Assembly (NCBI GenBank): GCA_013695355.1
Contig: JACDAQ010000040.1
Span: 2,146-66,145 of the forward strand
DNA length: 64,000 nt
Direction: 5' to 3'
DNA from: Candidatus Protochlamydia sp.
Lineage (GTDB): Bacteria; Chlamydiota; Chlamydiia; Chlamydiales; Parachlamydiaceae
Shown here: positions 12,001 through 15,000 of the stretch, one piece after another
Layout: the number at the start of each line of letters is the position of its first letter
How positions within the stretch are numbered: position 1 is the stretch's first letter
Position numbers: made by a program

Positions 12001-15000
12001 ACGCAGAATTTTCAACTGGAAGCTAAGTATGCTAAAGAAACCATTCAAGCGATCAGGTTAATTTCCCCTGAAGCTGCCGAAGATCTCAAAACACGTTATC
12101 AATTTATCGTCGAAGGGCTCTATGCAAATGTCAGTAAAAAAGGGCTAAAAGAAACTCAAGCTTTTGAAAAAATGTCAAAAAACAAACTGGCCCTGATGAA
12201 AAATAATTTGCAAAATCTAACTGTCCTTGATGAATTGGAAATGCAAATGCTTATGAATGATCAATCAGACGTTTTTGACCTAAGCCTAAACACCCTAAAT
12301 TCAATCAGTAAATATCGAAATGCAAACGCTAATAAAGCAACCTATTCAGATCCATACGAACAGCTAAGTGAAGGGATATCGACTCTAGACAGAATAGAAA
12401 ATTCGGCTCATAAATTAGGCAAATTTTTTACGCAAATTATTGAGTATAGGCCAGATATTGTAAGCAATAAAATAGATAAGCTCAATCTCACGCTCGCAAA
12501 TCAAGATCTTGAATTGGAAACCAAGCAGGCAAGAAAAGCCATTAAGGGCATCAAATTAATTTCCCCTGAAGCGGCCGCGGAACTTTCAACACGCTATCAA
12601 TCTATCTTAGAAGGACTTTCTACTACAGTTAATGATATCGGTCTATATGAAGGGCAGCTCCGTGAAACTTTGATAAAACAAAAACACGGCCTAATGAAAG
12701 AGCGGAAAGATAGCTTATCGTTCATCGATTCGCTTGAAATGAAAATGCTGATGAATGAATTTGCAAATATTTCAACAATCACGGCAAACATCGCAAATTC
12801 AATTCAAAAGCAAAGAATTTAAAAATTAATATATTCAATAACCCCCGTCTAAAACTTTTTGCAAAAGTTTAGGCGGGTCTGATGGGAGGGATTTATTTGG
12901 TGATATGGTATAGGCCTTAGAGGCAGCTAAAACTTATAGTGAAGAAAGAATCAGTTAATTATTTGGAGAAGTATATAGATGTTGATACTTTTCCCAATAG
13001 TAAAGATGTTCTGGCAAAAAGTCTTGACCATTGGGCCATGAAAGATTGGCTATTTCGTCGATTCTTACTTTTTTAAAATAAGATGGATCTTCCAATTCCT
13101 TCCACCATGAACGGTAATTTATTTTTTGAAAATCAATGATTTGAGTTTTTCCGTCTTCATATGTGATTTCAATAACAAAATCTTTGATATTTTTAAAGGT
13201 TTTGATATTGTATTTATTAGGATCGTCCATTTTTATTACTCATAGCAAATTGAATTTTTGGCGGAGTGACACTATTTTCTTGATTAAGCAATTCCCAGCA
13301 ATTCAAAAAATCTTCTTTATTTTCACGTAGCGCTTGATTAATTACCCTCTCTTGGCGACTAGGCATGTTTCCGTTTATGCGGCGTCCAGTTTCTATATCA
13401 TAATTTGCTTTATAATTTCCGTACATTGCCAAAACATGTTTTTTATGGTGAGGCGCACCTATCTCACAAAACATACAAAAAATAATACCGAAAAGATTAC
13501 CAATATTTGGCATAATTACCTATCATTAAAAATTGCCATTTGAAGCTGATTTCATTTCGTTCCAATAATCCAAAATATCATTTCGAAAATTCCGTATCAT
13601 TTTTTGAGCTTTGGCCAAATTAACAAATGATATTGTATTATGTGTTTGGCCATCGGTTTCGATATGTCCAGTTTCTAGGTTGATTAATACTTTTTTTCCC
13701 ATTTCGTCTTGGACCAGAATGATATGCCTTGTTGGACTTTCTTCATTAACGTAATACGTTAAACCATCCCAATGAGCAAATCTTAACATTTTATCACTCC
13801 TTTTTTTCAAATCTAAAAATATATTCATTTGCAATATTTAAAACAAGAATTATTGATATTTCCAAATCAAAGTAGCGAATATTTCTTATTTATTATATGA
13901 AGTAAGCAATTTTGGCCAAACGTCCTTCTGGAAGCTTTCAAAATTCAACCTTTAATTAATCGTAAATATTAACCGCACTGGCTAACCGTTTAACGTATCA
14001 ATTTTTAATGCTTCCAATTAAGATCATAGCTTACGCTTCGACCTTTGCTTGGATTCTGAATTAGAATTGCCTTTTCGATTAGATCAGAAATTTCGCGGAA
14101 GGCAGTGGCACGGCTTACTTTGGCAATTGAAACATATTTGCGCGTTGTCAGCCCCCCCTCAAATTTCCCTTGTCCGGCATTAAGCAAGAGATTTATCACC
14201 TTGCGCTGTCTTTCATTAAGTGAAACTTGGGAATAATTCTTCCAAAAATCAGCTTTTGAAATAATGCGTGAAATAGTGGATGTAGCGGATTCAACTGCCC
14301 TTATATAGCATGACAAAAACCAAATTAGCCATTCGGTAATATTCCCGTCGCCGCGTTGACATTTTTCAAGGACTTTATAGTATTCACTTCTTTCCTTCAT
14401 AATTTGGGAGGAAAGGCTATAAAGGCGCATTTGCAGCTTTTCATCCTGGGCTAATGCCATATCAGTCAGGGCACGTGCAAGTCTTCCATTGCCATCCTCA
14501 AATGGATGAATGGTCACAAAATAGAAATGTGCTATTCCAGCCCTAATAAGACCATCTTCTTTATCCCGCTGAACTTCCCACCAAGATAAAAATTGATCCA
14601 TTTCTTTTTGAACTAAAGGAGATGGAACTGCTTCAAAATGGACTGTCTCCTTCCCCAAAGCTCCAGAAATAACTTGCATGGGTTCTTCGCCTTGGCGCCA
14701 ATCACCTGCATGGATACGAAGAAGTCCTGAATATCCTGTAGGAAAAAGAGCTGCTTGCCAAGACTTCAATCGATCAGCTGTTAAAGGAGCTTCATAATTT
14801 ATTGTAGCATCAACTAAAATGCTTACAAATCCATCGATTGCACGGCTTGGTAAAGGCAACCCAAATGTTGAAAGTCCTAAATGTTTTGCTACAGAGGAAC
14901 GGACTAGGTCGCGATTTAAACCTTCACCTTCGATTTCAGCTGACTTCATGGTCTCTTCTTCGAGAACTTCTGCACTTGCCTCACGGCTTAACTCAAAACC

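Follow-up and report, generated by a model that had tools for sequence, protein, structure and literature searches.

A histidine-less DUF4160 paralogue conserved ahead of a dhiTA-family toxin-antitoxin pair in Candidatus Protochlamydia

Results

A variant of the dhiTA module with a third gene

We analyzed a 64,000-nucleotide stretch of the genome of Candidatus Protochlamydia sp. (assembly GCA_013695355.1, contig JACDAQ010000040.1, positions 2,146 to 66,145), referred to below as the window. In it, a gene pair of the DUF4160/DUF2442 (dhiTA) toxin-antitoxin family is preceded by a third gene, encoding a conserved DUF4160 paralogue without the histidine cluster of the toxin homologue. The identity of this paralogue, which is the new element here, is solid. 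The genes are denoted A, B, and C, and their copies are numbered. With a probability of about 0.55, we consider the first locus to be a three-gene variant of the DhiT/DhiA type II system, in which a dead paralogue of the toxin partners the toxin. The members of locus 1 are the following.

A1, positions 13789..13526, minus strand: first gene; 87 amino acids (aa); degenerate DUF4160 paralogue, pseudo-toxin candidate
B1, positions 13513..13217, minus strand: 98 aa; Pfam PF13711 (DUF4160); DhiT-family toxin homologue with the histidine cluster H22/H23/H26
C1, positions 13230..12955, minus strand: 91 aa; Pfam PF10387 (DUF2442); DhiA-family antitoxin homologue

The window sequence has these genes in the order A1-B1-C1, tightly spaced on the minus strand. 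The A1-B1 intergenic gap is 12 nucleotides (nt), and C1 starts 14 nt ahead of the B1 stop, which gives a B1/C1 overlap of 14 nt; the packing described earlier from the sequence without database searches (below, the sequence-only reading) agrees with these coordinates.

The assignment of the second and third genes to the DUF4160 and DUF2442 families, made by eye in that reading, was borne out by Pfam matches of B1 (E 8.9e-13, 48.7 bits with a cut-off of 23) and C1 (E 3.2e-7, 30.9 bits with a cut-off of 23.9). B1 is also a homologue of the NCBIfam model toxin_DhiT (NF048015; E 5.2e-15), although its 55.8 bits lie below the equivalog cut-off of 100, as does the score of B2 (E 5e-12), the toxin homologue of the second locus described below. 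Across the order, DUF4160 was found in 27 of 150 genomes, usually once and nearly always followed by DUF2442. To our knowledge, the DUF4160/DUF2442 family is widespread and has no solved structure.

The DUF4160/DUF2442 pair of Dickeya dadantii 3937 was named dhiTA and described as a toxin-antitoxin system of type II, in which the DUF4160 protein DhiT inhibits the growth of Dickeya and Escherichia coli and co-expression of the DUF2442 protein DhiA abolishes the inhibition (PMC8198452). DhiA neutralises DhiT via direct binding. The toxin gene stands first in a shared transcript, whose promoter is repressed by the complex, and the antitoxin is autoregulatory as well (PMC8198452). On Thermus thermophilus plasmids, a DUF4160/DUF2442 "persistence-enhancing module" raises plasmid persistence, and its first open reading frame (ORF) cannot be maintained without the second; in AlphaFold 3 models, the C-terminus of the Thermus toxin differs between the monomer and the antitoxin complex (PMC12724237). 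A comparative study describes DUF4160 as an effector domain that is usually followed by DUF2442 and has no confident structural homologue (PMC12065111). The two families had been called functionally uncharacterised in the sequence-only reading, which does not hold for a validated system (PMC8198452, PMC12724237); its suspicion of a toxin-antitoxin module was right, B and C belonging to the dhiTA family.

Locus 1 resembles the dhiTA modules of Dickeya and Thermus in that a DUF4160 gene is followed by a DUF2442 gene, directly downstream on the same strand, with about 90 aa encoded by each, the toxin gene first, and an overlap of a few bases. This pairing is absent from two other loci of the genome, locus 2 and a locus on contig C49, which have A and B without DUF2442. 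The dhiTA operon has two genes, whereas at locus 1 an extra DUF4160 paralogue without the histidine cluster stands 12 nt ahead of the pair. Since this third gene is conserved, the cassette is a variant and not a standard dhiTA member.

Searches of PDB by sequence with B1 and C1 gave no match, and fold searches gave no credible relative for B1 (VIA-align, wide search, best Z 4.7) or for A1 (Foldseek against PDB, best E 0.44); the toxin mechanism therefore cannot be inferred from the fold. None of the defence models in the PADLOC library, which dates from 2023, was matched by A1, B1, C1, A2, or B2 at E up to 0.1. The ESM Atlas also contains a cluster whose 67 members, about 173 aa long, carry DUF4160 in 97% and DUF2442 in 90% of cases. 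They are apparently toxin-antitoxin fusions, and most of those with a known phylum come from Actinomycetota.

Gene A is an inactivated-looking relative of the toxin gene

A1 had no match in the Pfam scan, and both A1 and A2 stay under the DUF4160 gathering threshold of 23 bits (A2 scores 20.6 bits, E 5.2e-4); among the foreign members of the A family, P0019 carries a weak precomputed DUF4160 match. Profile comparison is far more sensitive to the relationship: an A profile built from 25 sequences aligned with a B-type profile of 10 sequences at 98.5% and E 3.2e-15 in hhalign, over 79 columns, that is, the whole domain. Matched against the B type beside it, the A profile gives E 1.2e-14, a much closer relationship than the E 4e-5 obtained with canonical chlamydial DUF4160 proteins; in a library of 1.84e9 proteins, it reaches a B-like protein at E 2.7e-4. 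The AlphaFold 2 models of A1 and B1 (predicted local distance difference test, pLDDT, 84.6 and 86.9) have a common topology of four strands and two C-terminal helices in the same order, and the nearest structural neighbour of A1 in the ESM Atlas is a DUF4160 cluster, with a template modelling (TM) score of 0.78. The view that the 87-aa gene is a diverged duplicate of DUF4160 without the histidine cluster is confirmed by the profile comparison and the shared topology.

B1 has the histidine cluster APHHKKH and B2 has APHHNKH; neither A1 nor A2 has one. In the B-type alignment, H22 and H23 are invariant and H26 is nearly so, giving the subtype PHHxxH, compared with HxPPHxH in the canonical chlamydial DUF4160 proteins aligned. 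The A residues aligned to H22 and H23 are not histidines, and A2, A3, and A4 have no histidine at all in this segment. Also missing from the A proteins is an extended tail at the C-terminus, which B and canonical DUF4160 conserve. Taken together, the sequence comparisons and models point to A as the product of an old duplication of a B-type toxin gene, with the fold preserved and the histidine cluster gone. The cassette is thus a natural case of a conserved, histidine-less twin encoded directly beside its toxin, and this twin points to the histidine cluster as the functional site.

An A-like domain was also observed in P0035 (615 aa; also G352:C11:48593-48811, L065), where it spans residues 377-450 and matches the A profile at E 5e-9. 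P0035 is a large beta-propeller protein of the WD40 type, from a different chlamydial family. This embedding hints that a histidine-less A-like domain may act as an interaction module.

Conservation and distribution of the cassette

An exhaustive search with the A profile among 1.84 billion proteins yielded 30 cluster representatives at E up to 0.001, mostly of 76-106 aa, which form a coherent family; word-indexed searches with A1 and B1 had found only four to five close relatives. One candidate, P0037, was set aside as spurious, being a repeated carrier-protein-like sequence.

We looked up the neighbourhoods of eleven foreign A homologues. The order A, DUF4160, DUF2442 on one strand was found for six of the eleven (P0017, P0018, P0021, P0007, P0019, and P0023), on eight contigs, with P0021 and P0007 represented by two contigs each. 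The gap between A and B is 0-58 nt in five of these and 117 nt, as called, in P0017. For P0022, A is followed by DUF4160 and then by the contig end; for P0028, two small genes follow A, the first of them with a faint DUF4160 match (E 0.057). P0025 and P0031 (contigs too short) and P0040 were uninformative for gene order, and none of the informative contigs contradicts the order A-DUF4160-DUF2442.

Compared with the orthologous cassette (L059) of a same-genus metagenome-assembled genome (MAG), the ratio of nonsynonymous to synonymous substitution rates (dN/dS) amounts to 0.07 in A, 0.12 in B, and 0.10 in C, at dS of about 1. These values indicate that all three genes are real and constrained, A being the most constrained. 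The proposal that the arrangement is a selected unit, made earlier from its recurrence in the window, is upheld by this constraint and by the gene order in every informative foreign contig.

Within the phylum, the A family occurs in 5 of 400 genomes: the source genome (four copies), the same-genus MAG, a genome of another family, one with a truncated remnant, and one encoding a 618-aa WD40 protein with an A-like domain. Two other genomes of the same genus have no member of the A family. At locus L018 (G064:C1:451658-454744; 1151-1656, minus strand), a truncated ORF of the A type, 57 aa long, immediately precedes a DUF2442 gene of the C subtype, and no B lies between the two; the locus resembles a cassette from which the toxin gene has gone. 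The three-gene layout is so far found only in a few chlamydia-like bacteria, and, among the papers searched, those mentioning DUF4160 or DUF2442 contain no account of a histidine-less DUF4160 gene upstream of the pair. We know of few toxin-antitoxin modules in chlamydia-like intracellular bacteria.

Copies without an antitoxin gene

The second locus in the window consists of two genes.

A2, positions 49560..49300, minus strand: 86 aa; degenerate DUF4160 paralogue
B2, positions 49279..48995, minus strand: 94 aa; DUF4160 toxin homologue, histidine cluster intact

The two genes are separated by 20 nt, and B2 matches Pfam DUF4160 at E 1.4e-10 and 41.6 bits. In BLASTP comparisons, A1 and A2 are 36% identical (E 3e-15), B1 and B2 45% (E 5e-27), and A2 and B2 24% (E 1e-5); A1 and B1 do not match each other. 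The second copy of the two-paralogue arrangement reported for 48995..49560 is thus real as an A-B pair, but its DUF2442 gene is missing. No DUF2442 gene lies downstream of B2, and no remnant was detected in 48862..48994 with a hidden Markov model (HMM) of the C subtype (best E 1.5) or with tblastn using the closest C protein, that of L060; the same HMM and protein revealed nothing significant after B2, B3, or A4. The nearest relative of locus 2 is L060 (A 49% and B 59% identical), which has DUF2442, and the C-less state of locus 2 is therefore derived.

Genome-wide, there are three A-B pairs, two in the window and the third (A3-B3) on contig C49, and a solo A gene (A4) on contig C40. The source genome, 98% complete, has four A copies, thirteen DUF4160 matches, and C1 as its sole DUF2442 match, which leaves the two intact A-B pairs of locus 2 and C49 without an antitoxin encoded in cis. 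If A can stand in as an antitoxin, this would explain how two intact pairs exist in a genome with a single DUF2442.

These copies can also be explained differently: the C-less pairs and the solo A gene would be non-functional leftovers of cassettes, and their recurrence would reflect history rather than selection. We regard this as possible, with the odds against it; it covers the extra copies only, and is compatible with locus 1 as a working three-gene module. It is favoured by the DUF2442 gene of L060, by the fragmented ORFs that adjoin B3 on C49, by the solo A gene on C40, by decayed DUF4160 arrays on contigs C11 and C18, and by the truncated A beside a C-type gene in G064. However, the frames of A2, B2, A3, and B3 are open over their full length and have start codons, ribosome-binding sites are present for A2 and B2, and the histidine cluster is intact in B2 and B3. 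Furthermore, the paralogues within the genome are anciently diverged, with synonymous sites saturated, yet the proportion of nonsynonymous differences (pN) is well below that of synonymous differences (pS); this divergence may, in its turn, largely predate the loss of C.

Contig C47 (135472-136596, minus strand; L014:2473-3597) has four tandem DUF4160-like genes and no DUF2442. The canonical HRPPHVH cluster is kept only in the second gene (136288..136013), and the three others have lost it independently of the A family. With its histidine-bearing DUF4160 gene flanked by histidine-less paralogues, this array is a second, separate instance of the A/B theme. The arrays on C11 (4093-4969) and C18 (32411-32829) are copies of it decayed by stops and truncations. 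The four A copies and thirteen DUF4160 matches in strain-variable islets represent active accessory-gene traffic in this lineage.

The predicted A-B complex and the role of A

By homology to the Dickeya and Thermus systems, we infer that B is toxic and is neutralised by C. B1 would be the toxin, with its histidine cluster presumably catalytic or metal-binding, and C1, which would be translationally coupled to B1 through the 14-nt overlap, would neutralise it through direct binding, as DhiA does with DhiT. Gene A would encode a pseudo-toxin without catalytic activity, which joins B in a heteromer and so damps or regulates it; at locus 2 and on C49, the toxin would have no partner in cis other than A. 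Several lines of evidence argue for a dead partner: the fold and origin shared with B, the strict adjacency and tight coupling of the two genes, a constraint stronger than that on the toxin, the persistence of A with B where C is gone, and a complex score that exceeded the controls.

The sequence-only reading had proposed a structure prediction of the complex as a check. Run for A1 and B1, it gave an ipSAE of 0.57 (0.61, 0.57, and 0.57 in the individual runs), compared with 0.01 for the best control; the partner had a pLDDT of 79 or more, and 65% or more of the contacts were shared between runs. The prediction thus stands above its controls, but the verdict of the tool on A-B binding is "weak support". 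The mark used for this score was passed by 58 of 80 solved complexes and by 2 of 110 mismatches, and the range of 0.60 or under contains only 7 of the 80 solved complexes and both passing mismatches. If A does bind B, this suggests that the toxin acts, or is regulated, in oligomeric form. The C-terminal tail missing from A suggests that A would not bind C in the manner of B.

A number of points weigh against a dead partner of this kind. The B1+A1 score is in a range in which, short of a high prior, most passes are wrong, and the model may have paired A and B simply as paralogues of the same fold. Most A members retain a histidine at A1 position 22 together with conserved Glu and Asp residues, and A may have an activity of its own. 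C1 may act in trans on B2 and B3, in which case A would not be needed as a neutraliser, and the C-less loci may be decaying relics, given the C gene of L060, the solo A on C40, and the broken arrays on C11 and C18. Fold searches with A1 and B1 gave no relative that would indicate the biochemical activity of the toxin (Foldseek best E 0.44; VIA best Z 4.7), and co-transcription is argued from spacing and from consensus promoter matches that are not enriched over shuffled sequences. The role assigned to A, finally, is drawn from homology, genomic context, and structure prediction.

We infer a neutralising role of A with corresponding caution. In its strongest form, a full-length dead paralogue of the toxin would have been recruited as the antitoxin, heterodimerising with B and replacing DUF2442 altogether. 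We find this rather unlikely, but if true, an antitoxin would have arisen by an uncommon route, namely duplication and inactivation of the toxin.

Alternatively, A could be a third, regulatory component that controls transcription or stability of the operon and is not a partner of B. Tripartite modules with such a component exist, with omega in omega-epsilon-zeta and PaaR in paaR-paaA-parE as parallels. The first position of A in the operon, its ribosome-binding site, the strongest of the three, its dN/dS of 0.07, the lowest of the three, and its occurrence only alongside this B/C subtype would all suit a regulator. On the other hand, A has the DUF4160 fold, in which no helix-turn-helix or ribbon-helix-helix was detected, a search upstream of the A genes revealed no palindrome or operator consistently common to them, and in dhiTA the antitoxin and the complex already provide autoregulation (PMC8198452). 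A purely regulatory A is therefore improbable in our opinion.

Slightly less probable still is a cassette of two toxins, in which A, too, would be an active effector, its active site remodelled, and the single antitoxin C would keep both in check. The strong purifying selection on A, the histidine at A1 position 22 with the conserved Glu and Asp residues in most members, and the use of DUF4160 domains as effector modules in other systems (PMC12065111) are in line with this. Yet A2, A3, and A4 do not have even the histidine of A1 position 22, A genes persist with no DUF2442 nearby, one of them entirely alone, and A lacks the C-terminal tail of B and canonical DUF4160. The C-terminus of the Thermus toxin changes in the AlphaFold 3 model with the antitoxin (PMC12724237).

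Least of all do we expect the binding partner of A to be C and not B, with A as an anti-antitoxin or decoy that sets the threshold at which B is released: A carries the fold that DUF2442 recognises in B, but it lacks the C-terminal tail of B, persists in loci and genome contexts without a cognate C, and scored above controls with B, in the sole complex predicted.

Comparison with other systems

In the tripartite toxin-antitoxin system HipBST, a toxin-derived piece serves as antitoxin. The cassette, in which a dead toxin paralogue is proposed to partner the toxin, is similar in having three small co-oriented genes, one of them toxin-derived and with a proposed modulating or neutralising role. 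The folds and activities are unrelated, however, and the HipBST component corresponds to a subdomain split off from the toxin instead of a dead paralogue of full length, so the likeness is one of analogy and not of membership. The Menshen NsnC-like proteins also carry DUF4160, as a C-terminal toxic effector domain with no confident structural homologue (PMC12065111), in agreement with the fold searches above. The proteins described here, in contrast, are stand-alone and single-domain, and no Menshen model of PADLOC was matched.

Expression signals

Candidate expression signals at the two loci of the window are as follows.

Shine-Dalgarno-like AAGGAG, positions 13802..13797, minus strand: 7 nt ahead of the A1 ATG, read from the sequence
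Promoter-like site TTGGCC-16 nt-TATAAT, positions 13892..13919, minus strand: 10/12 in a consensus scan, between the stop of the Fic gene and the start of A1
Promoter-like site TTGAAT-17 nt-TACAAT, positions 49647..49675, minus strand: consensus scan, upstream of A2
Terminator-like hairpin, positions 48895..48912, minus strand: consensus scan, after B2

The AAGGAG motif gives A1 the strongest ribosome-binding site among the locus 1 genes; the sequence-only reading had called it strong. A longer A1 frame from the TTG at 13834 gains no support from the homologues, whose starts coincide with the A1 methionine. The spacing of A1, B1, and C1 is consistent with their co-transcription. The total of promoter-like sites near locus 1 is not above the shuffle expectation, which makes the site at 13892..13919 suggestive at most.

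Genomic setting

Locus 2 is flanked by a fatty-acid desaturase gene and by a tRNA-Cys gene (positions 49851-49922, plus strand), which is 291 nt away from the start of A2; such a place is typical for inserted DNA.

The locus 1 cassette has a guanine plus cytosine (G+C) content of 31-33%, compared with 40-45% in the flanking genes. In the complete genome G288 of the same genus, the interval between the NUDIX and adenine deaminase genes holds one different gene; in the source genome, the same interval holds a Fic gene, the A-B-C cassette, and a gene for a DUF5407-family protein. The cassette of the same-genus MAG has other downstream neighbours. The cassette is thus inside a strain-variable islet.

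Fic/DUF4172 gene, positions 15135..14005, minus strand: intact, with the motif HPFxxGNGR; 215 nt upstream of A1

The Fic gene belongs to the same low-G+C islet, which the syntenic site in G288 lacks. Its position upstream of A1, pointed out in the sequence-only reading, is correct, but the adjacency is not conserved in other cassettes. A functional tie was rejected, as four foreign cassettes have other upstream genes and a promoter-like site separates Fic from A1; the adjacency probably reflects co-residence in an accessory islet.

On the other side of the cassette and convergent to it, a plus-strand gene at 11830-12822, in the same variable interval, encodes a 330-aa protein with two matches to DUF5407, a family known from chlamydiae.

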